DNA of 64,000 nucleotides, from positions 32,001 through 96,000 of IMG/VR virus record IMGVR_UViG_3300033463_000025. The stretch is one strand, 5' to 3'. Within the stretch, counting starts at the first letter, position 1; the number at the start of each line of letters is the position of its first letter. The notes under the pieces are model-generated. The model was not told where the DNA came from and did no database searches. It saw nothing but the letters and a program-made list of their open reading frames with translations. This document shows, piece after piece, positions 19,789 through 51,943 of this stretch. The stretch is from a virus. Taxonomy: Duplodnaviria; Caudoviricetes. The position numbers and the translations under genes were made by a program.

Positions 19789-21219
19789 CTAAGAAGCAAC
19801 ACGACAAGCCTTCTCAAACATTCCTATAGCATCAGAATAAGCTACAGACGCATTACCAATTTGGCTAAATGCCTCTGATACTTCCTGAAGCGACATAGAC
19901 AACATTTGAAAAGGCTGTGTAATCCGCATCATCGTGATAAACGGAGGTGTATTACCATCACGACAACTGGTATATACTGCTTTATATGTATCGCCGTTTG
20001 AACTAATAACTTCGTCTAACTGCTTCTGTTGAGCTTTGTTAAAGTGGTTTTCATAAATCAGCTTATATCTATATGTATATTCACTCTTAGATAATTGCAT
20101 ATTAAGTCCTCCAATTCGTTTGTCTCAACAGTTATATTATAGCGTATTTTATAACATATGTCAATAGTTATTTTTAATTATTTTATAACTTTTTTATATG
20201 ATTCGCCTTTTAATCAGAAACGACCTCCATTATTACACTAATAGTTAGCATAATAAGAAACGCCACAATAACAAGTCCTGCTGAAATCCAAATTGGTGAT
20301 ATAATCCAATACCATTCCCATTTGACAATATCAACAATTCGCATTATCAAAAACATAAAACTCATGGCTACAGGAACAGTACACAGACCGCCGCAACCAC
20401 AACCGTCATTATTATCGTACATGGCTATTCTCCTTAGTATCTAACACGCCTACCACAAGTAGGACAATAATTCATTACTTTTTCTTTTCCTCTGTTTGTA
20501 TAGCACACATAATCTCTTGGTACTTGTTCGTCGCAATCTTCACAACCTTTGTGTTTGTCTGCAAACGACAACCTCAACTCATCGCTATCGTGAGATATAA
20601 TCTCATCAGCAATTCTCTTTCTGTTTTGATTGCAATATAAATTCACGAGTCTTAATGATAAATCGGCAGTATCTTTATCAACCAATAGATTAGCTTTTAT
20701 ATCGACCTTAAATTCTGACATACTATCCTCCCAACTACCAGCCAATACCATAACCCATAGTTAGTTTTGGCTCTACTGTAATTACATCATCATCTAAAAA
20801 AGACGTTTTTCTTTTGATTTGTCTTTCTTGTCTTTTACATACTTTATCGCAAGGTTTATCATAATAAGTACACAAGCCACACGGAGCATAATACTTACAT
20901 TGGTCTTTTATAAACACTAACAACACTTCCTTTTACAATGTCGTCCGAGAAAATCTTTTAAGAATATATCGTGGATTCCGTGAGAGATTAGAATATCCTC
21001 AAACATCGGCATATCACCTTTATCAGAATTGACAATATCCATCATTATAATCATCATCTTTTCTGTAGCCACAAATATATTCGGTAAAATCTCTTCCCCA
21101 TCGAACGCTAATTCAATTTCATCATTATTAGTAGTAACAAACAGATAAGCATTTTCAGAATTATTTTTGGCTTGATTCTTGATAATATCAACCCAAGCCT
21201 TATTTAATGTGTGTAACAT
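19789..21219 (-). other. five small hypothetical genes (19789-20100, 20210-20422 membrane, 20434-20751 Zn finger, 20735-20926, 20917-21219)
   Basis: tightly packed minus-strand ORFs. Confidence 0.55.
20136..20164 (-). promoter_or_regulatory. consensus sigmaA promoter driving the replication operon
   Basis: TTGACA-N17-TATAAT; the 17-bp motif overlaps the -35. Confidence 0.85.
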
Positions 21220-21242
21220 ATTAATACTCCAAATTCAATTTA

Positions 21243-22028
21243 TCACATATCAAAAAACCTTACGCCTTTATATTCAACTACAAACTTTTGTGATTCATGC
21301 CACGAACTTGTTGTGTACATTGAATTATACATAACCAATATTCTGTGCGGCACAGCCAACCCGCCTAAGTCAAAGATATAATCAATAGCGTCGTAGCAGT
21401 CTTGATTAGGAGCGTATATAAATGAGTAACGGTCATATTGATAATCGTGGTACACCGATTCAAGAGAAGTGCCAGTATATATAATAGCATCCCTTAGAGC
21501 TTGAGCTTGCAAACAGCAGGCAATATAACCTTCGTTTCCGAACTCACGCATTATAATGTTAGCCGCCAACTCACGCTCAGAATCCGATAGTCTTACCGCT
21601 TGTGGTGCATATGTAAAATCTGGGTCGTCAATGTCAAGCAGGTAAACGCCTGTATATCTTAGATTTATACCATCGGGATTGTTTTCGGGAGTATCATATA
21701 ATAGATATTCTGTGCTGTCCTCATCAAAGTCTGGCGAAGCCACCTCATATTCAAACGGTTTTGTTTCAGCTATTGCTTCTGTAGGTTTTTCGGTTGGGGC
21801 AGTCGTAGGATGAATTGTTGGCTTTACTGTTTCTGCGATTGTTGGAGCTGTTGTTGCTTTCACAGTTGGAGCTACCGTTTGGTCGGATATTATTTCTACA
21901 CCAATCGTCATCGGCTGTTCATATATTGATTCATCTTCCGTTTTTATTGTAGTAATACAAACAAAGCAAGAAATAAATAGAATCAATATAAGCACAAGAA
22001 AGACTATACTTATAATTCGTTTTTTCAT
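21243..22028 (-). CDS. membrane-anchored protein with Pro/Thr linker and SleB/Hydrolase_2-like domain
   Basis: N-terminal TM, APT repeats, LAANIIMREFGNE...QY...FF. Confidence 0.55.
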   Translation of the reverse strand: MKKRIISIVFLVLILILFISCFVCITTIKTEDESIYEQPMTIGVEIISDQTVAPTVKATTAPTIAETVKPTIHPTTAPTEKPTEAIAETKPFEYEVASPDFDEDSTEYLLYDTPENNPDGINLRYTGVYLLDIDDPDFTYAPQAVRLSDSERELAANIIMREFGNEGYIACCLQAQALRDAIIYTGTSLESVYHDYQYDRYSFIYAPNQDCYDAIDYIFDLGGLAVPHRILVMYNSMYTTSSWHESQKFVVEYKGVRFFDM

Positions 22029-22510
22029 TATTCACCTCTCTTGCTTTGCCAACATATATATGGATAATCCTTTATGTCATCATATTCAAGGTCTTCCTGC
22101 CAAACGGAAATATTAGTTATTTCGTTTCCATCGTGAAAATACCCTTTGCCTTCATCAGGATAAAATATTTCATGTTCGCAGAAATAATCAACAGTCATTA
22201 CCTCATAATTATCATACTCCGCTTGTACTTGTTCGATAGGTTTAATCGGTTTCAATTCCTCAAACTCATAATTTGATGGGAGTATTGTTGCACAATTTGA
22301 CATACTGATTGTTTCTGTCTTTTTAGTACGAAGATTTGTAACATCAATATAACTTGAGTAAACACTGTTATGAGAAGACCTTGAGGTTAAGACTTTAACA
22401 TCAACTTGCAAAATTAAAATATCGCCAATTTGAATATCTTTAAAAGCCTTTGCATAACTCTTTCGCAAGATTTTTGTTATTTTAATTGTATTTTTAAGTC
22501 TTATTTTCAT
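22028..22510 (-). CDS. hypothetical protein
   Basis: ORF in operon. Confidence 0.55.
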   Translation of the reverse strand: MKIRLKNTIKITKILRKSYAKAFKDIQIGDILILQVDVKVLTSRSSHNSVYSSYIDVTNLRTKKTETISMSNCATILPSNYEFEELKPIKPIEQVQAEYDNYEVMTVDYFCEHEIFYPDEGKGYFHDGNEITNISVWQEDLEYDDIKDYPYICWQSKRGE

Positions 22511-23090
22511 TTTTCCTCCAGGGCAACAAATCCCTTATACTAAACTTTTTCTTTGTATTATGTTCTCTATAATAATTGTCAATCAATTTCGCTATACGTT
22601 CTGGCGGCAACATATATTTTCTATTAATAATCTGAACGGTAGTTTCTTTATCAATATCCGTAAACTGCCCTTCGTCTGATAAACTCCTGCGACAAGCCTC
22701 ATCAATATTATCGCCACGCTCTAACATTTTGATAAGCCTTTCCCTACGAGGAACATTAATATAGAATGAATATATCGTATTCTTCGGAAGTAATTTTGAA
22801 ATCTGCCGAAAACCACTTGGATTGAAAACGCCAACAGTATTTTCTGTATAGTCAGCTCGTGCAGAGCCGTAATGCCATCCTCTATAGCAAGTGGTTTCAA
22901 GAAAGAAATTCTCGGACATCTTTTCTGAAAACTCTTGTTCGGAAATAAAGTGATAATCTACACCATCAACTTCATTTTCTCTTGGTGGTCTTGTCGTATA
23001 AGAAACGAGTCTGTCATAGCCAAAGTCTTTAGCTAAAACTTTTTCAACCGTTGACTTCCCACTTGCAGACTCGCCAATAATAACAATCAT
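22494..23090 (-). CDS. gmk: guanylate kinase
   Basis: GESASGKST, SYTTRPPRENEVDGVDYHF, YRGWHYG. Confidence 0.93.
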   Translation of the reverse strand: MIVIIGESASGKSTVEKVLAKDFGYDRLVSYTTRPPRENEVDGVDYHFISEQEFSEKMSENFFLETTCYRGWHYGSARADYTENTVGVFNPSGFRQISKLLPKNTIYSFYINVPRRERLIKMLERGDNIDEACRRSLSDEGQFTDIDKETTVQIINRKYMLPPERIAKLIDNYYREHNTKKKFSIRDLLPWRKNENKT

Positions 23091-23338
23091 TCAACCATCC
23101 CCTCAAACATAAAATCAATATTTCTTGCAGAGGATGTATATTCTGTAGAAGATACACAGCTTGTCCTCCAACTAACATCCCTTGCAAGCAACTTATTATT
23201 TTTGTACACATCCATCTGTGTACCAAAACGTTTCAGCCACTTCTTATTAATACGCCTTTTCTTATGACGGCGACGTTGAACAACGCAAAATTCCAAAACA
23301 GATAATTCGTCTGGTATTTCTATTTCAAAATCAGCCAT
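23087..23338 (-). CDS. hypothetical basic protein
   Basis: RRHKKRRINKKWLKRFG motif. Confidence 0.55.
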   Translation of the reverse strand: MADFEIEIPDELSVLEFCVVQRRRHKKRRINKKWLKRFGTQMDVYKNNKLLARDVSWRTSCVSSTEYTSSARNIDFMFEGMVE

Positions 23339-24468
23339 TAGTGAGCCTCCAAATCAGCTTTATGAAGTATCATAATATCTTCATACATAGTTTTACCTAT
23401 GCGCTTCATATCACGAGTTTTTGATTTTTCACTCTGCGCCCACGATGTAAACGGCTTCATATGATAATAGATAAGATTGCAAATATAAAGACCGTCGTTC
23501 TTGTTTACGCCGAGGCTGGATAAATAAAACATAGCATCATAAGCCCCGACGTGATGGTGATTATAATAGTGATATTCGCCATCGTCTTTACCTTTGGCGT
23601 TTGTTCTCGATACAGTGAACGGCTTGCCAATATCATGCAAAAGCGCGGCAAGAGCAATCCTATCATATCTGTTGAGTTCACCAAGACCGCCATTAACAAT
23701 ACAGCCAGCGACTTTATCAACGTTTATCTTATCTTCTCTTACCTTTCCGTCATTATCTAAAATGTCAATTTTAACAGGATAATTAGACTTAACAAAGTCA
23801 TACGCCGCTTTACAGTGTTCGCCAAGAGAAAACTTGTGATGTGAATTATGTTGGTCAAATGAATCAAATCTTTCAAACAACGAAGACAAACTGTATTTAT
23901 TTGGAATTATTGAAGATTCGTTTTTGCCAACAATCTCAATTCGGTTAAAGCCTTCGGTGTACATCGGAGGACAATAACCTAACAAAACCTTGCGTAACTC
24001 TGTGGAATAAATTAACGATTCACTTAACGGAGAATTAACCAAAGCATCAAGATAATCTTCAGCAACAACAATACACATAGGAAAGCAGGTGATATTTGAT
24101 AACTCTTGAAGAAAACCAATACGAGCTGATTTCTTCATATGGTCGCCGTCATAAATAACGTGCTTTCCTTTACGTAACGCCATCTTAACTTCTTTCGGAT
24201 TTGAAAGAACAACAGTATTATCATCGTAAATGCTAAAATCATTTTCGTCATTAGTAAGCAGTTCATGTTCATAATAAAAATGAATTTGCTTAACAAACTC
24301 TGCTTTTGCAAGTGTCGGAAAACCAACAACCATACATACCGCAGGCGCACTATGCGTAGGTATGCCGTAATACACTTTATTCTTAGTTAAAACAAACATA
24401 AACAACCCCTCATCTTTTAAACGATGTGATATATTTATAAGCCTCGCGCCAATCATTAACTCTAACAA
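23338..24468 (-). CDS. kinase-like (degenerate P-loop) + HD phosphohydrolase fusion
   Basis: VGFPTLAK, VIYD, PPMYTEGF; HH...EHC, LLHDIGKP, HM, AD; true start probably near 24405. Confidence 0.75.
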   Translation of the reverse strand: MLELMIGARLINISHRLKDEGLFMFVLTKNKVYYGIPTHSAPAVCMVVGFPTLAKAEFVKQIHFYYEHELLTNDENDFSIYDDNTVVLSNPKEVKMALRKGKHVIYDGDHMKKSARIGFLQELSNITCFPMCIVVAEDYLDALVNSPLSESLIYSTELRKVLLGYCPPMYTEGFNRIEIVGKNESSIIPNKYSLSSLFERFDSFDQHNSHHKFSLGEHCKAAYDFVKSNYPVKIDILDNDGKVREDKINVDKVAGCIVNGGLGELNRYDRIALAALLHDIGKPFTVSRTNAKGKDDGEYHYYNHHHVGAYDAMFYLSSLGVNKNDGLYICNLIYYHMKPFTSWAQSEKSKTRDMKRIGKTMYEDIMILHKADLEAH

Positions 24469-24964
24469 TATCGCTTTTGGTTACATCAAAATCTCTATTA
24501 TGTGACATATCCATCAATATCTTATGCTTTTGATTTCCCATAAGGTTATGTGGAGCATCATCAATAATAAAGTCAGTTGCAATCAAAGACTTATTCGCCG
24601 TAACAATAATGTGCGACCAATCAATAAACGGAAACAACCTTTTTATAACTCGCTCGAATTTTGGTTTAACATTCCTATAATCTGTCGCTGTACAAAAATA
24701 AATATCATACTCAAGATTAATAAGTTTTTGCAGGTACTCAACAGCCATAGGTTTAGGCGTTATCCTGTCCCAAAACCATTCAACAGTTAAAGGCGAAAAA
24801 ACCTGTTGACGAGTTAGTGTTGGAAAGAACGAAGGCACATCCCACTTATCAATATCATTACAATTAACATTTGTACCGTACATTTGATTCAGCCAGTCAA
24901 TCCAATGAGGAAGAAGATATGTAGCGGTATCATCAATATCTACCGCAATCGTACATCTACTCAT
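24410..24964 (-). CDS. 5'(3')-deoxyribonucleotidase (NT5C, HAD family)
   Basis: AVDIDDT, FIIDDAPHNL, HNR. Confidence 0.88.
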   Translation of the reverse strand: MSRCTIAVDIDDTATYLLPHWIDWLNQMYGTNVNCNDIDKWDVPSFFPTLTRQQVFSPLTVEWFWDRITPKPMAVEYLQKLINLEYDIYFCTATDYRNVKPKFERVIKRLFPFIDWSHIIVTANKSLIATDFIIDDAPHNLMGNQKHKILMDMSHNRDFDVTKSDIVRVNDWREAYKYITSFKR

Positions 24965-25091
24965 TATCATCAGCCTCTTTATCTGTGTTGGACTTAGGTT
25001 CGATTTCATCATTCCTGCTATATGACAGAATTGCCATCATTGAAATGCCAATAAAGCCGCCAACTAATAAACCAATAAAAAATCCTAACAT
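24957..25091 (-). CDS. 44-aa membrane peptide (absent from the ORF track)
   Basis: MLGFFIGLLVGGFIGISMMAILS...; RBS GGGAG. Confidence 0.55.
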   Translation of the reverse strand: MLGFFIGLLVGGFIGISMMAILSYSRNDEIEPKSNTDKEADDNE

Positions 25092-25106
25092 TTCTTTCTC
25101 CCTAAT

Positions 25107-28100
25107 TTAATTATCAACTGTAATAATAATTACGTCTTTCCAATATTCTTGATACTTTGTGGCGGTATCTTCAACCAATCTATCAAACTCTTCGTCTGAT
25201 AAATCCTCATATTCGTCTCCCAAACAATAGGCGATATTTTCTTTGAAATCGTCCTCGTCCATCATAACTTCTTCGTTGGTGTATGGCGTTTCACAATCCA
25301 GTATCATGCCAACACTAAAACTAATTGACGAACAATAGGTGTAAGTATAATCAGGGCAAGAGGCATCATAACCTGCCATTACAACAATCGGATAATCAGG
25401 ATGTTTTGCAATAAGTTCTTTTAATTCATCTGTGCTTGTTGTTAAATTAAGCGGAAAGATTTTACGGGCTATCATAGTTTATTCCTCCGATTTGATTTTG
25501 CCAAACTCATAATCGAGTTCTTCATAGCCAATCTTAGAATATGTATCAATAAACCATTTTGGGTCACTACTTATTTCTTCTAATAGCTCATCAATACCCA
25601 TTTTGGTATATTCTTCTGTCAATAAAGCATTTTTGAAAATTGAAGCATAACCTTCCATGTCCTCGAAAACACCAACAGTAATCAGACTATTACGCAGTTT
25701 TGAAAGGTCTTTAACTTCCTTTGAAAACTTATTTAATAAGTCATATAAAAGTGATACGCTTATCCCGTTATTATTTTCACATTCGGTATCAATAAACAAG
25801 AAATTATTTGCTTCATCACAGACGAACCTACAACGCTGGCGAAACGACCAATATGGATATTCACATCTTCTATCTTCAGTCACATAATTACATTGATACC
25901 GTTCTATATATTCATAGAATAAGTTATAAGTTAATCCGTCAATTTTAATTTTGTTAATATCTATCAATTTACAATCACCTCATCCTCAAACTCATCCATA
26001 AACATTCCCCACTTTGTATCTAATGTTCTGCCGTTAATTTCTATAAAGTCAGGATGTGTAATCTCAATCTCATTAAATAGTACATTACACATAAATCCAG
26101 GACGGTCTAACGATTTGCAAAATACCATTCTCCCTCTGGAACTAAAAGATAGAATTTGTATTTTTTCACCATCTTTAAAATCCAAAATGGTAGGGATGCG
26201 CTGAGGTGGCAAATGATATATACCAAAGCAATTTTTCATATCATTCAAATCCTTTTTGCCCAAAATGTTGATATATCTGAGCTTTATCAGCCAGTGTTAT
26301 TTTATAATATACTGTACGGTTGTTAAAATCTAATAACCAGAACGAATCTGGTGCTTGCGTGGAGGCAATAACAACTTTAGGCGTTACACCCTTATGATAT
26401 GAAACATCAAAGTTATTATATATATGCAAATCTTTAGGAGCGCCATCCTCGTCATAGTATTGCACACTTAGCTCAATGTTATTTTTATTACTAATGTAAA
26501 CATAGTAGCTTTTGTCATCTACTATATATGGAGTGAGTTCATATGTTTCTTCAGTAGTAGAGTACACACTATTAATACTGTAAAATATTCCGCTAATTGC
26601 CAACATAATCAGAATTGATACAGTTGCGCCGCCCAAAGCTCCAGCTAAAAAACCAAAACCTCTTTCTCCTTGTTCGTTAAAGAAGAATGTCATAAAAATA
26701 ATTGCAGAAGCGATTGCACATACAGTCACAATTACCCACATAGTTTTTTGTTCGACCTCCCACTCATTGAATATGCCAAATGTATCTTTTTTTAATCCTT
26801 ATGTTTATTTATTTTGAAACAACTCATATGGTATATCATCGTATGGAGAAATAATTGCAACAACATTCTCATCACCATTTTCGTTTTTACTTTCTAACTT
26901 TGTATAGTTGCCACGAATTTGTGACAATTTTATGTTTGCTATTTGAGTAAACGGTTCTATTGTGTTTTTATCAACTCTAATCATTTCAAGACCGCACTCA
27001 TTAACTCCACCGCAAAACCCACCTGGCATATAATTGTTGCGGACAATATAATAAATCCAATCGTTGGGATTACTATACCACGGCTTATCTATCACGATAT
27101 ATCCAACCACATAATCATTATCCTTGATTGAACGTGCCATATATGTATAATCTTCCTGTTTATTATCTTTATCATATTCTAAAACCAAAGTAACCATTTC
27201 TGTAGCCATATCTTATCTCCTATAAATATTGTTATTATTCAAGATTAAAAACATGGATAGTATCATTTTCAATAAGGGATTCTCCAAAATACAATCGACG
27301 CAAATAAAAATGATTATCACATAAAAACCATTTAATTCGGTTATCATCATCGGGTTCTGAAAAAAGAATATCTCCATCGAATCCTCGATAAAAGTTACGA
27401 TTATTCTTACTCAATATTAAACCTTTATCTGAAAATTCAACACCAAATAATATATCAAAATCATTTGATGATTTACCTTCGTATTTTGAAACACAAAGCA
27501 AGCACTCTTTTTCATATATATGTTTTGCACACATATCTTCATTGTGGTATTTCTTGTAATAACAATACTGATTACATTGAGATAAAGCGATACAATTATC
27601 ACAAGTTATTTTCCTATTTTGAATTTGATTTAATATTTCATTAATACGTTTTCTTTTATAAACCTCTTTTATCGGCATACAATTTCACCACAAAATCTTT
27701 TAACCATTTATTATTCTACAACTTCACTTTTGAGATAATCTTTCCAACAATCAAAGCAAGGGAGCGTAAACCTTCCTCTGACGTTAATAAAGCCTTTCTC
27801 AATACGTTCTACAGGACATCCACGTTCATCATGGCATACTTGATGAAAAGCTCTATCTGCGGCATAATCTTCAACAGTCATATTTTGTATGATTTTTTCA
27901 AAGTTAGTCACGATATATACTCCTTATGAAATACCAATTTCATTATCTTAATTACCAATACTGATTGTCTATATAGTCTTTACAATTATAGGCATCAGTC
28001 ATATTATCAAAACCTTCATCTGTAATGTTACACGCTCCGCAATATCCATAACAATTTCGACTTGCCATTATATATTTCTTTACGCCTTCATATTCTGCAT

Positions 28101-28953
28101 ATGTGAGCTTTACGAGAAATGTACCAGAATCCTCTGCACACATAACTCCACCATACCACTTAGAAACGTGCGGTGCATTTTCAATAGAATCAAGAAGAGA
28201 CTGATAGTCTTCAAGCCACTGACGTAGTTGCTTATGTTCTTGACCACATTTAGTACAATCTTCTTTTTCTCGACAATGTTGTATTGCTTCATTAAGAGTC
28301 ATCATAATATTCACCAATACCTATTTAATATTATCATCATACCGTTTAAGAGTACCATCTGAGTTATACAAAGGACATACGCTTATTCCAACCCCACCAC
28401 ACGTTGAGGCTGAATTGTAAACACATAGATATAAGATGCCCGAATCATTATCCATAAAAGTATCAAAACTAAACGCACCATGTTCCTCTTGAGCTACTAT
28501 TGTGTATGTATCTGTTATCGCTTGATTTTGATTTTTAGCCGCATCAACAGTACACGCGGATAAAACAAAAATAAACAGTATCAAAAATCCTATAGCTATA
28601 ATTATTGATAATCTTTGGTTTGAATTAAAACATTCTTTCATATTTTAAGCCTCTATTTATTGCAACAGTTTCATATCTCGCTCATCGTTTTGATGTGCTA
28701 AATCAGAAATGGTTATATAAGCAATATCGTGTTCGTTATTCCCAAACCGAATGATAGCATCATCTGATTTAAAACCAATGATTTTGCCACGCCTGCCGAC
28801 AAAAGAAAATGCAAATGTGCGTTCGGAATTTTTAACAACGGTAACTTTATCACCAATTTTAAATGCACTTTGCCATTCAGCTTTTTCTTTTCTTAATCTT
28901 TCAAACATTGTTTTCCCTCTCAAACACTTCAAAATAAAACTCAAATAGTTCAA
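25107..28953 (-). other. run of about ten small hypothetical genes, incl. membrane protein 26241-26741 and lipoprotein-like 28321-28641
   Basis: packed minus-strand ORFs; LSAC lipobox in 28321-28641. Confidence 0.55.
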
Positions 28954-29311
28954 CAGGCGTTTCGTGGACTTCTATCAAACCATAGCGTTCTCCAATTCCA
29001 AACGTTTTTCTATCTCGCCTAAGTTTAAAAGGAATAGATGTAATGACTTTACGAAACGTATCTATATCATAAGTATCTTTGTACCTATTACAACTTCTAC
29101 AAGAAGGCATTAGGTTATCAAACGTATCAGGTAATTTGTTTTGAAGTTCAGGCTTGACTTCAAAATGATAGACAGGAATTAGGTGGTCAACTTCCATTTC
29201 ATCAAAAGCTATCTCGCATCCGCAATAAGCACAATGACCATGATACTTGTTATATATAGTTACACGTTGTTTTGGCGTTGGTTTGTGACGATTAATCTTT
29301 CGTTGGAACAT
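28901..29311 (-). CDS. HNH endonuclease
   Basis: CAYCG, EVDHLIP, NLMPSCRSCN. Confidence 0.9.
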   Translation of the reverse strand: MFQRKINRHKPTPKQRVTIYNKYHGHCAYCGCEIAFDEMEVDHLIPVYHFEVKPELQNKLPDTFDNLMPSCRSCNRYKDTYDIDTFRKVITSIPFKLRRDRKTFGIGERYGLIEVHETPVELFEFYFEVFERENNV

Positions 29312-29383
29312 CTTAATCCTCTAATTCATCAATACAGCTTTGTGGTTTAAGCCCTGGTGATAAATCAAAAACATTTTTCATCT

Positions 29384-31565
29384 TTATTCAACACCTAATC
29401 TTTTCTTTAACGATTGTAATTCCGATTCAATCTGTTTGAGCCTTTTATTATTATGTGCAATCCTATCTTTCTTTCTGTTAATCTCGATTATTTCACAAGC
29501 TATTTTTGCAAAATCCACTTCATATGAACAATGACGTAACGATTCTTCCAACAGATGTAATGAATATTTTTCCCAATTTGCGTTCTCGCAACTTCTCCAA
29601 CGATACACTACCTCAAGGCAAAAATTATTTGACATATGTTCGGCAAGATGTTTGACATACTTATTAAACTCTGGCGTTTCTGGCATAAGTTTTGCATTGT
29701 TCAATTCTTCAAGCTCACTGTTTATATTATCTCTTTCAGTTTGCAATTCGCGGATTTTAGACAGAGCTGAATGTTCAAAAGGTTGAACGCAATCAACTGG
29801 ATTTCTCGGTACTTCTACAATCACTGGTAATGTATCTTCTTTTTCCTTCTCCTTCTTCTTCTGTAACCAATTAAACATTAAATAGCCTCCAACTCTTTAA
29901 GGATTGTTTCTCTATCAATATCGGCAAATTTCACAGACGGAGCAATATACATCCAATTACAGACAATCTCTCCACTCATTTTTCGCATCCACATTACAAA
30001 CTTGCCAAGAAATGGTGAATGTGTATATTGATTATTAAACTTAGAAATAAACTCTTTCATTTGTGACGTTGAAACATTATCTGCAAAAATTACATAAAAG
30101 TCTGACTTCCCGTGTCCACAACACGAATAGGCGGTTTCCAGTCCACAGGAATTAAATACATCACAAATCGGAATACACTCTTTATCCATTCTACTTGGAT
30201 ATTCAAAGTGTTTTAAATGAAAATTATCTTTCATTTTCTTTAACCTCACTACTAAGCCATTCATTCCAACATCGTCTACACGCTCTCTTTTTATCTAAAT
30301 AACCGCCATCTTCCCAATAGCAATTAATCATGTCCTCATTAGTTGGACATGAACGAGCAAGTATATCAATTAAATCAAATGGTCTCATAGACATAATCTT
30401 TTGATAATTATTCATAACATCAACCCCTACCAATTCCACTCGTCAATCACAAAGTCATTATCATAAAGACCATAGCATTTAAGCTCTAATAAATGTTTCT
30501 TTTCATCTTTTAATGCAAAAATCATATAATCTGCCTTTCTAATGCTGTCCATCGTATCATAGAAATCAGTCATTATTTTATGACACATTTGATAATCAAT
30601 GTCGATTGTTCTGTTGATTATATCTAAGTAGTTGTATTCGCTAAGTTTATCCATAAGAATAAGAACTTTTTGATATTTAGCTCTTATATCTTCACGCATT
30701 ATTTTTAAAGATTTTTCTAATGCTTGAATTTTATAATCTATCTCTTGCAAACGATTATCGTAATCAAATTTACACATATTCTTAGGTATATTATTATTTT
30801 TTAAAACATCATTTTACATTATAAAAATCATTTGTTATCTCTGTAACATTCTTAAATATAAACCAATCATCAAACGGATTCTTTGATATTAACACTATTT
30901 CTTTTACACCAATGTCAAAGCAATACTCCATTAACTTTCCTATTGAATCATACTCTTTCTCTGATTCAACGATAGTTTTATATAGTTTCCCATGATGTGC
31001 TATTATCGAATCGTTTTTGCTTATCTGATGGCTTGAAATGACTAAACTTCCATCATATGTGAAATACAAATAAGATTTACGATTTCCAAATTTTCCCAAA
31101 ATTGTAAATTTTTCATTTCGAGGTATTACTCTTAAATAGCAATTTCTTTTTGAATCAAACATCTTCTTCTACCTCTTTACAATATCTATATTCGGCAACT
31201 AAATCCTGTGCAATTTTGGCGGCGTGGTCTTCATCTTTAGCCATAACATAAACACCGTATCTACCATTTTTATAACGCTCAACTTCATTAAACACTGATA
31301 CATAATCACCAGTATAATAATCATCCACATAGTCAAAATGACCCTGTGCATCAAAAGCAACAGAATAAACTTTACAACCGCTATTTGCTAAATCTGCTTC
31401 GGTAGTGAATTTATCGGTATCATACACCTGTATTCTTGCTCTGGTGCTTTCAAAACTGTCATCGGTAAATAACTTTCGCAATCCTTCAGCTTTAACTTCA
31501 TCAGTAGCTACAGCGCAAATGTGGTAATCAGAATAGCAACCCTGCGTAATGACATATACTTTCAT
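29384..31565 (-). other. six hypothetical genes
   Basis: packed minus-strand ORFs; SCCGH motif in 29878-30264. Confidence 0.55.
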
Positions 31566-44400: not shown

Positions 44401-45589
44401 CAAAAGCAAAAGTAATGCCGCCGCCTTTTCGGAATTGTTGGTTGCTAAAACAACTTTCAGATTTGAATAGTCAATATTGAAAGCAATCTCAGGGTCACCA
44501 TCAAACATCGCCTGTAACTTGTTAATGTAGGTAATCCAGGGTGGTGAAATCTTTAATCTATTATCGGTCATAATAAATCACTCCTTAATATCAATTTAAA
44601 AATATTTGTGAAAAATAGCTCGAAGAGTTTTCTTCCACTTTCCATTTACTAATTCATAGCCGTTAATGTAAACCTTATTATCTATGACGGTGCTATTATA
44701 TCCTCTGCCTGGGAGTTTATATTTAACGTCATTAATAAAATCATAATCATCTTGAATTTTGACGACAGTATTATTATCGCCATTGATGTGAATGTTACTA
44801 TAATTCAATACTATCTACTCCATTATTAATACCAATCTCCAAAATCAACATTATATTCGGACAAATACTTTCTTACTTCTTTGTCACATTCTGGGCATTT
44901 AGTAGAAGCACAAAAACTATCGGTAAGTTTTGTAACAATAAAAGATTGTGGTGGAACAATAAACTTACAACCGCAACGCCGACATTGAAATTTCATATTC
45001 TTCTTAATCATTTTTATGACTTTACTCGGCTTTACAATAGATTTATTACTACTATCTTCAGCTTTGGCAATAATTTCATCTATCACTTGTTGAATACCGA
45101 TTGTAAACATACCCCTGTCGGTTGTGTTTAATTGAGAAACGAGAATGTAATCCTTTTCCTTTATAATTCTCAACAGTTCATCAGCATCAATAAGTCTGCG
45201 GTGTCGTTTATTCATTTCAAATCACCTTCGATTATTCTTATTTCTTAACTAAACTCGTCTATCCTGTTTTTAATATCCGAAACAGCCATAGTTTTTAGCA
45301 TTTTTATATGATTAAAAACGGATTTGCCGTAATTAACCTAAGCACTTTCGCTTTGTCTGTACTTATCCCATATATGGTACGCTTCAAACAAACTCGTCGT
45401 TGCCGTCCAAGTGTCAAAATTACACCAAATAATATATACAGGTGAGCTATAGTGAACTCGGTTATCATATTCAAACTCTCTTGTGACTTTATATAATCCA
45501 TTACCACGACTACCTTCAAGCCGAAAGAGAATAGAATTGTTTTCTTCACATAACTTTACCCATTTATCGAAGTGTGTAACTTTATTCAT
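41478..45589 (-). other. about eleven small hypothetical genes; 41478-41792 has an XRE-like HTH
   Basis: packed minus-strand ORFs; GISKKQVCKFFNISKSKLTLW. Confidence 0.55.
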
Positions 45590-46394
45590 ATGGTTCTACC
45601 AGAGGAATAATCTCCTTGAAATGACAATAGAATTTTGGTGCTAATGCTCTACCAGTGAAATGTAAATGACCGCCGTGCCATTCCTTAAACTCTAAGCCGT
45701 TATCTAATAGCTCATCAAGATATTTTTCAACAGCATCAGCATCATAGAAGCCAACGAGTGAACAAATACTATGCGGAAATGTATGTGTAAAAACATAATC
45801 AACTTTATATCCGCACTTCTCAAGGTTTTGTTTGCCACGTTCAAATTCTTCTTCTGTTGGGATTTCTCTTTCCCACCAAGACATCTTATTGACGCGAAAA
45901 TACTTACCTTGAGCCTGTCGCCTATTATATGCGTTTACAAATCCTCTACGGTCTTTATAGTCTTCCATTTCCATAATACCGTCTTTAATATCATGTGAGC
46001 TTGCTCCACCCATCACAAAACATTTCTTTCCGTCGAAGTCAAATACATAACCTCGCATAAGATGAAATACTTTATCACGGATTTCATGAGCTTTACCACC
46101 ATGAAAATCAACGATAGGAAATTCATCACTATATAACCGACCGTAATTCTCGTGATTCCCGTCCACAAAACAGGTTACATAAGGTTTATCATTCAACCAA
46201 TCGAGCCAGTAATTCTCTTCTGGGATATTTGCAACGCCAAACCGCCATCTCGCATTTGGGTCATTACACCAAATCCCGCCGAAGTCACCAAGAATAATCA
46301 TTGTATCATTCTCGGTAAGCTCGTTTTGCTCAGGAAAATTGTATTTTGAAAACCTATGAAAATCTGCGTGGGTATCTCCTGTTATGTAAATCAT
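45582..46394 (-). CDS. calcineurin-like metallophosphoesterase
   Basis: GDTH, GDFG, DGNHEN, TH, GHLH. Confidence 0.92.
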   Translation of the reverse strand: MIYITGDTHADFHRFSKYNFPEQNELTENDTMIILGDFGGIWCNDPNARWRFGVANIPEENYWLDWLNDKPYVTCFVDGNHENYGRLYSDEFPIVDFHGGKAHEIRDKVFHLMRGYVFDFDGKKCFVMGGASSHDIKDGIMEMEDYKDRRGFVNAYNRRQAQGKYFRVNKMSWWEREIPTEEEFERGKQNLEKCGYKVDYVFTHTFPHSICSLVGFYDADAVEKYLDELLDNGLEFKEWHGGHLHFTGRALAPKFYCHFKEIIPLVEPYE

Positions 46395-47175: not shown

Positions 47176-47442
47176 CTATGAAACCTTTTTATCAAGCCAT
47201 TTATATAGATTATCTATATCACGTTGGCACTCAATTCTAAACGATACTTCGTAATCGCCGTGCGTAACGCCTCTAAATGTTATACTCCACACTCTTCCAT
47301 CACGGCTGTCAAAGCAAGAGTCAATACATTTTATAGCTCTTCGGTGTCGTATGTGATTTATTTCATACATATGTTCACCCCAAGAGTTATTCTTTTTTAT
47401 GTATTCAAGTAATTTGCAGAATTGTTCAGGTGTCATTTCCAA
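47176..47442 (-). CDS. hypothetical protein
   Basis: ORF overlapping the RT stop. Confidence 0.55.
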   Translation of the reverse strand: MEMTPEQFCKLLEYIKKNNSWGEHMYEINHIRHRRAIKCIDSCFDSRDGRVWSITFRGVTHGDYEVSFRIECQRDIDNLYKWLDKKVS

Positions 47443-48530
47443 TTCCTTTTCTTTTTCTTTGCTCTCTTTTCAATTTTTGATATTACAGATTTTTCTACCA
47501 ATTCAAAACCAGCAATATCATTGATTCTGTGGTCTAAGCGTATGCCTACCGTATGACAATCAGCACGAGAAATATGCTCACGCCATGAGTAATAAGATTG
47601 CCTAAACTTTTCAACGGTCAACCTACCTGCGGCGACAAGTTTTGCCATCTTTACATATTTTCTTTGTGCTGTTCGTTTCTTAGAATTATCTAACCTTCGT
47701 ACAATCACGCCGCTATTGGTGATATATGTATGGAATCCTAAGAACGCAATCCCGTTTTTAATAGGAAATATCTGTGTCTTATTATTTAGCTTTAATCCAA
47801 GTGATTCAATAAAGCTCGTAATGGCTTCTAAACAGTATTTAAGATATTCTAAATCGTGATGTACAAGATAGAAGTCATCCATATACCTGCCGAAATAAGC
47901 AATACCAAGTTCGCCAGTTATAAGTTTATCTAATCCATCCAAGTATAATACAGCAAACATCTGATTAACTTGATTGCCTAACGGCAAGCCAACATCTTCC
48001 GTGCTGTCAATAAACTTGTTACACAGCCACACAATTCCTTCGTCATATCCAAAATAGTATTCAACTATATCTTTCAATAAATCATGCGGTATGTTGTAGA
48101 AATATTTAGATATATCACACTTGAGAATATAGCCATTAAGACCGTGCCTTTTATAAAAGTTCTTTAAATGTTTGCTTAATTGATTAAGTGCTAAATCAAT
48201 TCCTTTACCGTCTTGCCCTGCGTAGTTATCTAATAAAAAGATTTCTTTTGAACGCAACTGCAAAACATTATCACACAGGCTATGCTGTACAACATTATCT
48301 TTAAAACCAGCGACTTTGATTTCACGCTCTTTAGGTTCAAAAACTAAAAAGGTATTATAAGCATCAAGTTCATACGTTCTGTTTTCAAGAAGTGATTTGA
48401 TAGTTAGTACACCATCTAACGCACTAATGTCAAACTTAGCTGTACTCTTCTTTTTACCTCTACCACATTTAGCATCCTTAAAAGCGTTATAAATGTTTTT
48501 AAAATCCGTTACTAATTCAAAATCTGTTAT
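47433..48530 (-). CDS. DGR reverse transcriptase (365 aa if initiated at ATA)
   Basis: FEPKEREI...FKDNVVQH, LKCDISKYF, LPLGNQVNQ, RYMDDF, FLGF; frame open 89 codons upstream of the track start. Confidence 0.95.
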   Translation of the reverse strand: MTDFELVTDFKNIYNAFKDAKCGRGKKKSTAKFDISALDGVLTIKSLLENRTYELDAYNTFLVFEPKEREIKVAGFKDNVVQHSLCDNVLQLRSKEIFLLDNYAGQDGKGIDLALNQLSKHLKNFYKRHGLNGYILKCDISKYFYNIPHDLLKDIVEYYFGYDEGIVWLCNKFIDSTEDVGLPLGNQVNQMFAVLYLDGLDKLITGELGIAYFGRYMDDFYLVHHDLEYLKYCLEAITSFIESLGLKLNNKTQIFPIKNGIAFLGFHTYITNSGVIVRRLDNSKKRTAQRKYVKMAKLVAAGRLTVEKFRQSYYSWREHISRADCHTVGIRLDHRINDIAGFELVEKSVISKIEKRAKKKKRNWK

Positions 48531-48639
48531 ACAGCATTACCTCTTTGCTTTTTATCCCTATTGGGAAGGGTCATACATTCTTTTGGCAGTGGTGCATTGA
48601 TTTCCGCCTTTTGCGTACTCTGTCGAGCTATCCACCAAT

Positions 48640-48703
48640 ACGGACGAAGCCCATTCTCGTTGTTGTAGTTGTTGTTGTTGATGTTACCGTGAGGCGACAC
48701 ACA
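48640..48703 (-). repeat. DGR template repeat (TR), 64 bp, 20 adenines
   Basis: AAC-rich; differs from the VR only at adenines. Confidence 0.95.
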
Positions 48704-48735
48704 AAGAGAAAGGTTACAACGCATAACCCATATAA

Positions 48736-49107
48736 CTACTTGTATTCTGACGTTCTCCACGCAATAGATAAGTGTTTTACATCTTTTACCAAACCACTCC
48801 AATATTCCGCAGACTTGTCTGACAACAATTTAATTTCCATTGAAAGCTCGATATAAAATAATAGTTCATCGCAATATGCAATAGCTTTAGTAATTGCTTC
48901 ACAACGCTCCGCTTTATTGCGTCTATTATCAATTCGATTTGCTTCTAACAGTGTATCAAATATATCTAAACACTTAATTTGTATTTTATCTCCGAGAGAG
49001 TGACGATATTTCTTAGGGTATCTATCGCTATTTGAAGTTATAATATATGTATGTTTCGCAAGCTCTTTGGCTTTAGAAACAACTATCGGTTCATCATTTC
49101 GTGACAT
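48736..49107 (-). CDS. avd: DGR accessory variability determinant (four-helix bundle)
   Basis: YPKKYRHSL...EAN...W motifs; located between target and TR. Confidence 0.9.
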   Translation of the reverse strand: MSRNDEPIVVSKAKELAKHTYIITSNSDRYPKKYRHSLGDKIQIKCLDIFDTLLEANRIDNRRNKAERCEAITKAIAYCDELLFYIELSMEIKLLSDKSAEYWSGLVKDVKHLSIAWRTSEYK

Positions 49108-49730
49108 TAGTTCGTTGGAGATACAAAGATATTAGAGTCAAAGATACAAAACGGACGAAGCCCATACTCGCGGTTGTAGACGTAGTGGTCGATGTCACCG
49201 CGAGGCGACACACACTTTACCCAAGTGCTATCCTCATGCTTAGGTGTGCTAAACGCCGTAACCAGCCACCACCATTTATTGACTTTAAACTTATCAAGAA
49301 TATCGACATACCTACGATACAGGTTTGTGGTAAGCAAAGAAACCTTACGCTTAACCTTGCCATAATCCTTCAGACCATCATCAGAAGTAAGGTCAACCGT
49401 GTGTAAAACAAGATTATCTGCTCCGATAATACTCTCAATTTCTGTGGCGAAAACTTTACAAGCATCATCAGCAAGCGAGCCATCAAAGTTATTGTTCTTG
49501 TTGCTAAACTTTTGGCAATCCTTGAGAAGATTTTTACAGATTACTGCGGTTGTAAAAGCTGAATGTTCAAGTACAATAAACTCGTACTTACCAATCTTGA
49601 ATGTTCTACCTGCTTTCAGACTTCCTAACTGCACAGCACCAATACCGAAACTATCTTGGATTTCAGCTACTTGTGCATCGGTTAAGAAAATCTTTTGACC
49701 GTTAAGCTGAATAAAATTCTTGTTTGCCAT
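49107..49730 (-). CDS. DGR target protein (CLec-type C-terminus, DUF6273-like)
   Basis: KVSLLT...WWWLVTA...CVSPRG...GLRPFC; GGAGG RBS before ATG 49730. Confidence 0.9.
   Translation of the reverse strand: MANKNFIQLNGQKIFLTDAQVAEIQDSFGIGAVQLGSLKAGRTFKIGKYEFIVLEHSAFTTAVICKNLLKDCQKFSNKNNNFDGSLADDACKVFATEIESIIGADNLVLHTVDLTSDDGLKDYGKVKRKVSLLTTNLYRRYVDILDKFKVNKWWWLVTAFSTPKHEDSTWVKCVSPRGDIDHYVYNREYGLRPFCIFDSNIFVSPTN
49151..49214 (-). repeat. DGR variable repeat (VR)
   Basis: 54 of 64 identical to the TR; all 10 mismatches at TR adenines. Confidence 0.95.
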
Positions 49731-51914: not shown

Positions 51915-51943
51915 ATTATAGCACCATTAACAGCGTTTGTCAA
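51915..51943 (-). promoter_or_regulatory. sigmaA promoter for the ncRNA/tRNA cluster
   Basis: TTGACA-N17-TATAAT. Confidence 0.85.

Follow-up and report, generated by a model that had tools for sequence, protein, structure and literature searches.

Adaptive immunity apart, diversity-generating retroelements (DGRs) are the only natural systems known to hypermutate proteins in a targeted manner; those found in phages are usually interpreted as host-range devices. Among the closest described systems are nd4_tgt2 and nd12_tgt2, small DGR targets of the DUF6273 type (PMC10743442); small DGR targets are also carried by the Faecalibacterium phages Lelie and CP11 (PMC11792537), and in Toutatisvirus a core small gene containing a variable repeat (VR) lies 17 kb from the template repeat (TR) (bioRxiv 10.1101/2024.10.15.618418). 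That the DGR target of a phage may be non-structural has already been suggested for Quimbyvirus, whose second target (ORF 80 or 84, both numbers being used in the paper) was proposed to be non-structural and to act in phage-host conflict (PMC8008677). Here a DGR cassette is described which lies within a window of 64,000 nucleotides, corresponding to positions 32001-96000 of a virus record of 143,758 bp that has direct repeats at its ends (IMGVR_UViG_3300033463_000025, G000), a phage of about 144 kb belonging to a clade of gut-Clostridia phages.

The cassette is a genuine DGR of this phage clade; taken as a whole, the evidence leans towards its targets being soluble hypervariable binders that act off the virion. 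A preliminary description, made from the letters of the window, had reported a complete DGR in the order target(VR)-avd-TR-reverse transcriptase (RT), with the target stop codon overlapping the avd start and with tRNA and single-stranded DNA-binding protein (SSB) genes as surroundings. The layout was confirmed on all these points: all parts lie on the minus strand, in the order target(VR)-avd-TR-spacer-RT, the stop TAA of the target shares bases with the avd start ATG (TAATG), and an 88-aa open reading frame (ORF), tRNA-Leu, tRNA-Pro and SSB genes follow beyond RT. The features are the following, in window coordinates; IMH stands for initiation of mutagenic homing, RBS for ribosome binding site, and VR2 is a second variable repeat described below.

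49107-49730, minus strand: target A (T1), an ORF of 207 aa, with ATG at 49730 and a GGAGG RBS 8 nt before the ATG
49147-49214, minus strand: VR1, coding for residues 173-194 of the 207-aa target A and forming a 68-nt repeat with TR
49151-49163, minus strand: IMH-like 3' end of VR1 (GGGCTTCGTCCGT), GC-rich and invariant, identical in TR, VR1 and VR2
48736-49107, minus strand: avd, 123 aa, matching NCBIfam DivGenRetAVD, Pfam bAvd and PHROG 3206
48636-48703, minus strand: TR, 68 nt with 21 adenines, including 7 AAC codons and 1 AAT when read in frame with the target
48531-48635, minus strand: spacer from TR to RT, 105 nt, the 3' part of the presumed DGR RNA
47433-48530, minus strand: RT, 365 aa, with ATA as first codon at 48530-48528
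51915-51943, minus strand: candidate operon promoter, TTGACA-17-TATAAT with TG, a 12/12 consensus match

The 68-nt direct repeat was detected without prior assumptions. TR and VR1 differ at 11 of the 68 nt, and all 11 mismatches fall at TR adenines (21 A; hypergeometric P = 2.3e-7); the changes in VR1 are confined to codon positions 1 or 2 of AAC, AAT, CAC or TAT codons. When each TR adenine is replaced by N, the resulting pattern matches only TR and VR1 in the window, with a chance expectation of 0. The eleventh mismatch, from A in TR to T (TAT to TTT, RPY to RPF), lies at the 3' boundary and is common to VR1 and VR2; it may be either a selected change at an adenine site or the homing boundary, and relatives sometimes retain A at this position. 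TR encodes the peptide CVSPHGNINNNNYNNENGLRP and VR the peptide CVSPRGDIDHYVYNREYGLRP; the 20 adenines contained in 8 AAY and 4 single-A codons allow about 10^12 DNA variants (4^20) and 7e11 peptide variants. The preliminary description had given the same peptides and the same 4^20 variants, and its ten mismatches, all at TR adenines, are correct within the 64 nt it considered; the direct repeat that it reported is real, but its length is 68 nt and not 64. It had also noted no obvious hairpin after the VR, and folding agrees: no hairpin was found after VR1 or VR2, where the 96 nt from the IMH-like end onward fold worse than shuffled sequences (z +1.9 and +2.0). An equivalent of the IMH-like stretch is kept across the aligned TRs of the clade, and by analogy with BPP-1 GGGCTTCGTCCGT may function as IMH.

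RT and Avd are both recognizable at profile level. RT, which adjoins TR, matches RVT_1 (2.2e-13) and PHROG 1423 'reverse transcriptase' (7.6e-91) and has the catalytic motif YMDD at residue 216; Avd matches PHROG 3206 'Avd protein of DGR' (1.2e-21), along with NCBIfam DivGenRetAVD (2.3e-11) and Pfam bAvd (7.5e-7), both of which score under their curated cutoffs. In place of the usual DGR motif [LIV]GxxxSQ, RT contains LGNQVNQ. The motif of the clade is LGNQ(I/V/T)(N/A/S)Q, with Q in most members (G in three homologues) and S in some only, and adenine-specific mutagenesis is evident in the clade despite this LGNQ-type motif. Length and sequence of the spacer are kept in 24 aligned loci, among which the pairing of a small GGC/GCC stem is preserved through two-sided changes.

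Checking the rest of the genome for remote VRs revealed a second one, missed in the preliminary description, at the end of a paralogous gene. This gene lies 30 kb from the cassette, outside the window, and the corresponding features are given in coordinates of the entire genome.

110779-111399 (L007 10779-11399), minus strand: target B (T2), a 206-aa paralogue with 41% identity to target A
110819-110886, minus strand: VR2, which ends target B; the adenine-masked pattern matches 110823-110882
103-115 kb (L007 3271-14567), minus strand: small-gene array, monocistronic units divided by GC-rich terminators

Thirteen of the 14 mismatches between VR2 and TR fall at adenines, the remaining one being located at the final base of the repeat; a single TR thus appears to serve two paralogous targets, A and B. 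Target B is a separate transcription unit, with a strong terminator upstream and a terminator-like site downstream. As judged from consensus match alone, its promoter, at L007 11474-11446, is TTGACT-17-TATAAT with TG, a near-consensus extended -10 type, followed by the leader tag TGTCACAAAGACA. The combination of extended -10 and tag is seen again in 7 further units over 20 kb, where 0.09 would be expected by chance. Units of the array share a consensus extended -10, TGTCAAAAGACA 5 nt later, and then an AAAGGAG RBS; the array looks like a co-regulated early gene set. BLAST and motif searches that took antisense-RNA coordinates as their starting point gave no repeats, and the leader tag emerged only from listing consensus promoters.

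The cassette was compared with 79 related IMG/VR loci (L008-L086). At 90% identity the target family falls into 1310 clusters, and at 50% it has 859 representatives; nearly all members are of about 200 aa, and homologues are found in gut metagenome-assembled genomes (MAGs) of Oscillospiraceae, Acutalibacteraceae, Ruminococcus, Lachnospiraceae and relatives. Beside the target, the RT gene cluster is present in 60 of the 79 loci and the Avd gene cluster in 55. Most related loci contain two tandem small targets, and matches between TR and VR with differences at adenines only, usually found for both targets, span 40-84 nt, mostly 60-75. Three tandem small targets are seen in L045 (6001-7705), all with adenine-only VRs matching one TR, and three also in L046 (6001-7816). 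Target A is orthologous to the first of the tandem copies (52-66% identity), and target B to the second (43-53%, versus 35-41% to the first); the A/B pair is therefore old, and in the phage under study B has moved.

The same comparison bears on activity and on what is peculiar to the locus. The near-identical relatives L063 and L082 show no differences in TR and 500 nt upstream, while their VRs differ at 12 of 20 adenine sites and at 0 of 48 others; since they diverge only at VR adenine sites, the DGR clade is active. Three aspects held to be unusual in the preliminary description turned out to be ordinary: a short TR is the norm of the clade, given the span of the matches above; small stand-alone targets are a published class (PMC10743442, PMC11792537, bioRxiv 10.1101/2024.10.15.618418); and an SSB gene is a neighbour in 34 of the 79 loci. 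Other recurrent co-oriented neighbours encode a metal-dependent hydrolase, a DnaD-like helicase loader, an SbcC-like protein, RecT, primase/helicase, Ant and a replication initiator, and no structural gene was found among the ten recurrent neighbour clusters annotated. The neighbours handling single-stranded DNA (SSB, RecT and others) may conceivably take part in homing of the complementary DNA (cDNA). A dedicated promoter just upstream of the first target was considered as a clade trait and discarded, as it is found in 9 of 74 loci against a background of 6%.

Target A is predicted, from its structural model, to consist of a single DUF6273/C-type-lectin-fold domain spanning the entire protein. 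At sequence level it matches PHROG 9958, of unknown function (6.5e-34). No NCBIfam match was obtained, and no Pfam match at default settings; at E 10 only DUF6273 (PF19789) appears, at 15.5 bits (E 0.017) over residues 138-198 only, below the gathering threshold of 23.5 bits. The homologue gp24 of Toutatis reaches 24.8 bits with DUF6273, and many close homologues have a precomputed PF19789 match. By tblastn against phage records, matches were found in nd4 (E 7e-17), in the Faecalibacterium phages Lelie and FP_Toutatis (E about 1e-10) and in FP_Brigit; the Lelie match and FP_Toutatis gp24 are both annotated 'DUF6273 domain-containing protein'.

An AlphaFold2 model of target A was built from 114 homologues, with a predicted local distance difference test (pLDDT) score of 86.6. 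According to VIA-align its best match among solved structures is the DUF6273 domain of 9qa6 (Z 13.3; 164 aligned residues, root-mean-square deviation 3.0), which forms the N-terminal part of a secreted, sortase-anchored multidomain IgA peptidase of Thomasclavelia ramosa (PMC12402451). The C-terminal domain of Legionella Lcl (Z 9.2) and the DGR target TvpA (Z 7.3) follow, and the model also resembles a Bacteroides fimbrial C-type-lectin domain and many C-type lectins. Foldseek detected nothing in PDB at E 0.001 or better, and matched viral models named 'DUF6273 domain-containing' at E 4e-8 to 1e-7. In the model, the stretch coded by VR forms a surface beta-hairpin; among the 114 homologues, entropy of about 3 bits is found only at residues derived from TR AAY codons, with invariant flanks, and an N-terminal extension of about 30 residues is conserved.

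The preliminary description had spoken of a small, stand-alone, non-tail target with no signal peptide, and in this it was right; the protein is made up of one domain. Neither a membrane segment nor a signal peptide was found in target A or target B; the missing signal peptide is uninformative on the role, because virion proteins likewise lack one. A conserved disulfide, considered as a possible mark of extracellular life, was rejected, T2 having a single cysteine. Both targets fall outside the tentaclins, as they have 206-207 aa, one domain each, and a C-terminal VR, and the PHROG for Hoc-like head decoration matches the VR region alone of the small targets.

A mechanism can be proposed from the sequence signature and from BPP-1. 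TR and the conserved spacer would be transcribed together, and RT, with Avd, would copy the TR RNA into cDNA, misincorporating opposite adenines. This cDNA would next take the place of the VR, and the boundary of homing would be marked by the GC-rich 3' end, which is invariant (GGGCTTCGTCCGT). Targets A and B would be produced from host-type promoters in the non-structural arm of the genome as soluble hypervariable binders, acting inside infected or lysogenic cells or else once lysis has released them.

The division of the genome into arms is apparent from the ORFs. Plus-strand ORFs of at least 150 aa run from about 119.5 kb across the record ends to 32.5 kb, a region presumed from its large proteins to be the structural/late block, and the minus-strand arm, from 32.6 to 118 kb, contains both targets. 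The 23 consensus promoters of the genome are unevenly placed, 13 on the minus strand at 100-116 kb and about 2 in the structural block. The plus-strand arm contains a DGR of its own.

Genome about 27.5-30.4 kb (region about 20369-30400, L006 1-8400), plus strand: second independent DGR, whose VR ends a 2455-aa protein

The VR of this second DGR is located at the C-terminus of the 2455-aa protein (...WIGVRPCFSIF), and its TR of about 130 nt shows 10 mismatches to the VR, all at A, plus a 3-nt gap. The RT has 442 aa and the motif LGSQISQ, and a 266-aa ORF in the avd position has no Pfam match. A strong hairpin is found about 60 nt after this VR (z -5.8), unlike the situation at VR1 and VR2. Host-range diversification is probably handled by this second DGR.

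For the A and B proteins themselves, a role off the virion is favoured by context over a role on it, at roughly even chances, because the genes lie in the minus-strand non-structural arm, are associated with host-type promoters and, in the case of target B, share a leader tag with other units. The replication-module neighbours in the 79 loci, the lack of a membrane segment or signal peptide, and the presence of a separate DGR on the 2455-aa protein point in the same direction.

The alternative that survives best, possible although clearly the less favoured, is that the small targets are virion components with an Mtd-like function in receptor binding or adhesion, docking on tail or capsid through their conserved N-terminus; in that case the DGR would serve to adjust host range or adherence, as proposed for nd4_tgt2. 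The fold is common to Mtd-type and TvpA-type DGR targets, the look-alikes in BFVD include named tail or receptor-binding proteins, the PHROG 'Hoc-like head decoration' matches the VR region, the TR of nd4, Lelie and Toutatis serves a Hoc-like tentaclin together with a small target, and the N-terminal 30 residues are conserved. Yet no recognizable attachment domain is present, the genes lie away from the structural block and on the strand opposite to it, T2 sits within an array of host-type promoters, defined by consensus matches, with a shared leader tag, the cassette is located in replication modules in the 79 loci, and the giant late-block protein already has a DGR of its own.

Several considerations weigh against an off-virion role. 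We know of no experimentally studied DGR target with a C-type-lectin fold that is not surface-displayed. DUF6273 is found elsewhere in extracellular or virion-linked settings, namely the IgA peptidase's N-terminal domain, the tentaclins, and BFVD entries with tail or receptor-binding names. The conserved N-terminal extension could be a docking element, and the promoters and expression timing are read from consensus matches alone. An Mtd-like receptor-binding role is what the authors describing nd4_tgt2 and nd12_tgt2 proposed (PMC10743442), and in the nd4-like phages one TR also diversifies a Hoc-like tentaclin. Direct evidence on either role was sought as well: in the papers examined that mention the domain, no proteomics of virions was found to include a small DUF6273 target. 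Within the off-virion reading, it is rather improbable that the A/B pair works as a phage 'antibody-like' system, made inside the cell from host-type promoters, diversified by a dedicated DGR of the replication module, and binding variable intracellular targets, such as host defence or rival-phage proteins. The preliminary description had proposed an intracellular hypervariable binder, possibly against host defence proteins; of this interpretation an off-virion role is supported in part by context, while an anti-defence role of the targets is speculative.

A further question concerns whether the cassette is functional at present. The preliminary description of RT had overlooked its start codon, which is ATA at 48530-48528; no ATG, GTG or TTG start was found in the RT frame before residue 90, and the next in-frame start would cost about 89 residues. 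The aligned codon is ATG in 45 of 59 homologues; the homologues read ...TGYTGT-ATG-ACC-GAT-TTT..., with an RBS 9 nt upstream, and the same RBS spacing is kept before the ATA. The RT may therefore be produced poorly, by initiation at AUA, or be absent and, because of this codon, present activity of this copy of the DGR is uncertain. Patterns anchored on the flanks gave 0 matches to strain-level relatives of this phage in viral and metagenome contig collections.

An out-of-frame ATG 8 nt upstream of the RT ATA opens an ORF of 6 codons, which is also found, with ATG or GTG, in many relatives. In L008, L009, L010, L016, L018, L020 and L022 no stop interrupts the frame that leads from the TR peptide across the spacer to the start of RT; in the phage under study, unlike these relatives, a stop and a frame change occur between the two.

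It is conceivable, though somewhat less so than a virion role of the targets, that the cassette is a recently silenced relic, in which a G-to-A change turned the RT ATG into ATA, RT is no longer produced, and VR1 and VR2 preserve earlier diversification in frozen form. The codon itself, the equal RBS spacing in the homologues and the loss of about 89 residues from the next start would fit this explanation; the remaining RT ORF, Avd, TR and spacer are nevertheless intact, VR1 and VR2 are in frame, and the ATA may be an assembly error. Moreover, AUA can weakly initiate translation, and the RT of the second DGR might or might not stand in for the missing one. Finally, the idea that TR and VR resemble each other by chance or through ordinary gene duplication, with no DGR involved, has only the shortness of the repeat in its favour and is refuted by mismatches confined to adenine sites in two independent VRs, by the 0 matches expected by chance, by the RT and Avd genes adjoining the repeat, and by the recurrence of the same design in related loci.

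In the surroundings of the cassette, the candidate promoter at 51915-51943, of the extended -10 type and identified by consensus match alone, precedes tRNA-Gln, tRNA-Met and small ORFs, followed by the cassette. No convincing minus-strand terminator was found from this promoter to the SSB gene, the sole terminator-like match being a 15-nt stem in the IMH-like end of VR1. Directly after SSB, a metallo-phosphoesterase gene (PHROG 1649, 2e-30) is located at 45582-46394 on the minus strand of the window; a homologue with 52% identity is also found downstream of the cassette in the relative L076.

In gut phages, cassettes of this type and targets of this class have been described before and are common. 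What is new is the remote VR2 in target B, 30 kb away and provided with its own host-type promoter and leader tag, together with the ATA start of RT and the presence in the same phage of a second DGR on a 2455-aa protein. The phage would divide two jobs, with one DGR acting on a giant, presumably late protein and one dedicated to two small lectin-fold proteins. The small-target cassette is very common in phages of gut Clostridia, and occurs in many gut MAGs as well; identifying the ligand of these small proteins would explain a large share of the DGR activity of the gut virome. If the antibody-like interpretation were true, the clade would represent a widespread form of programmed hypermutation serving counter-defence and not adsorption. 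The value of the present locus lies in its additional anatomy, i.e. the A/B pair, the remote VR2, the ATA start and the two DGRs, which sharpens the question posed by a common clade.

Compared with known systems, the small targets of nd4, Lelie, CP11 and Toutatis are the nearest relatives: they are homologous in sequence (27-30% identity, E 7e-17 to 1e-9), consist of a single DUF6273 domain of about 200-290 aa with the C-terminal VR as a surface beta-hairpin, and are encoded at a distance from the tail genes, in the vicinity of replication or early genes. The other target in those phages, however, is a Hoc-like tentaclin, whereas two small paralogues and no tentaclin are found here and in most related IMG/VR loci. 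Further differences from those systems are that B has moved 30 kb into a small-gene array with host-type promoters, recognized by consensus matches, and that the host phage is 144 kb long and has a second DGR.

The resemblance to BPP-1 (Brt, Avd, TR, Mtd) concerns the target-avd-TR-RT order, the adenine-specific differences between TR and VR, the C-terminal VR of a C-type-lectin fold and the 3' end of the VR, GC-rich and invariant in both. Mtd, a trimeric tail-fibre tip protein of 381 aa, has beta-prism and beta-sandwich domains, while the target described here has one domain; the TR of BPP-1, 134 bp long, compares with 68 nt in this cassette. There is also no hairpin after the VR here, and the RT motif is LGNQVNQ instead of ...SQ. 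A hairpin or cruciform after the VR is of the BPP-1 type and not universal among DGRs.

The best solved match to the fold, the 9qa6 domain, is undiversified and shares 15% identity with target A. Finally, the second target of Quimbyvirus is similar in its C-type-lectin fold and in its location, far from the structural module and on the strand opposite to it; this likeness is one of fold, placement and argued role. In Quimbyvirus, a phage of Bacteroidetes, one DGR serves a structural and a non-structural target, while in the phage described here a dedicated DGR serves only the two small proteins.

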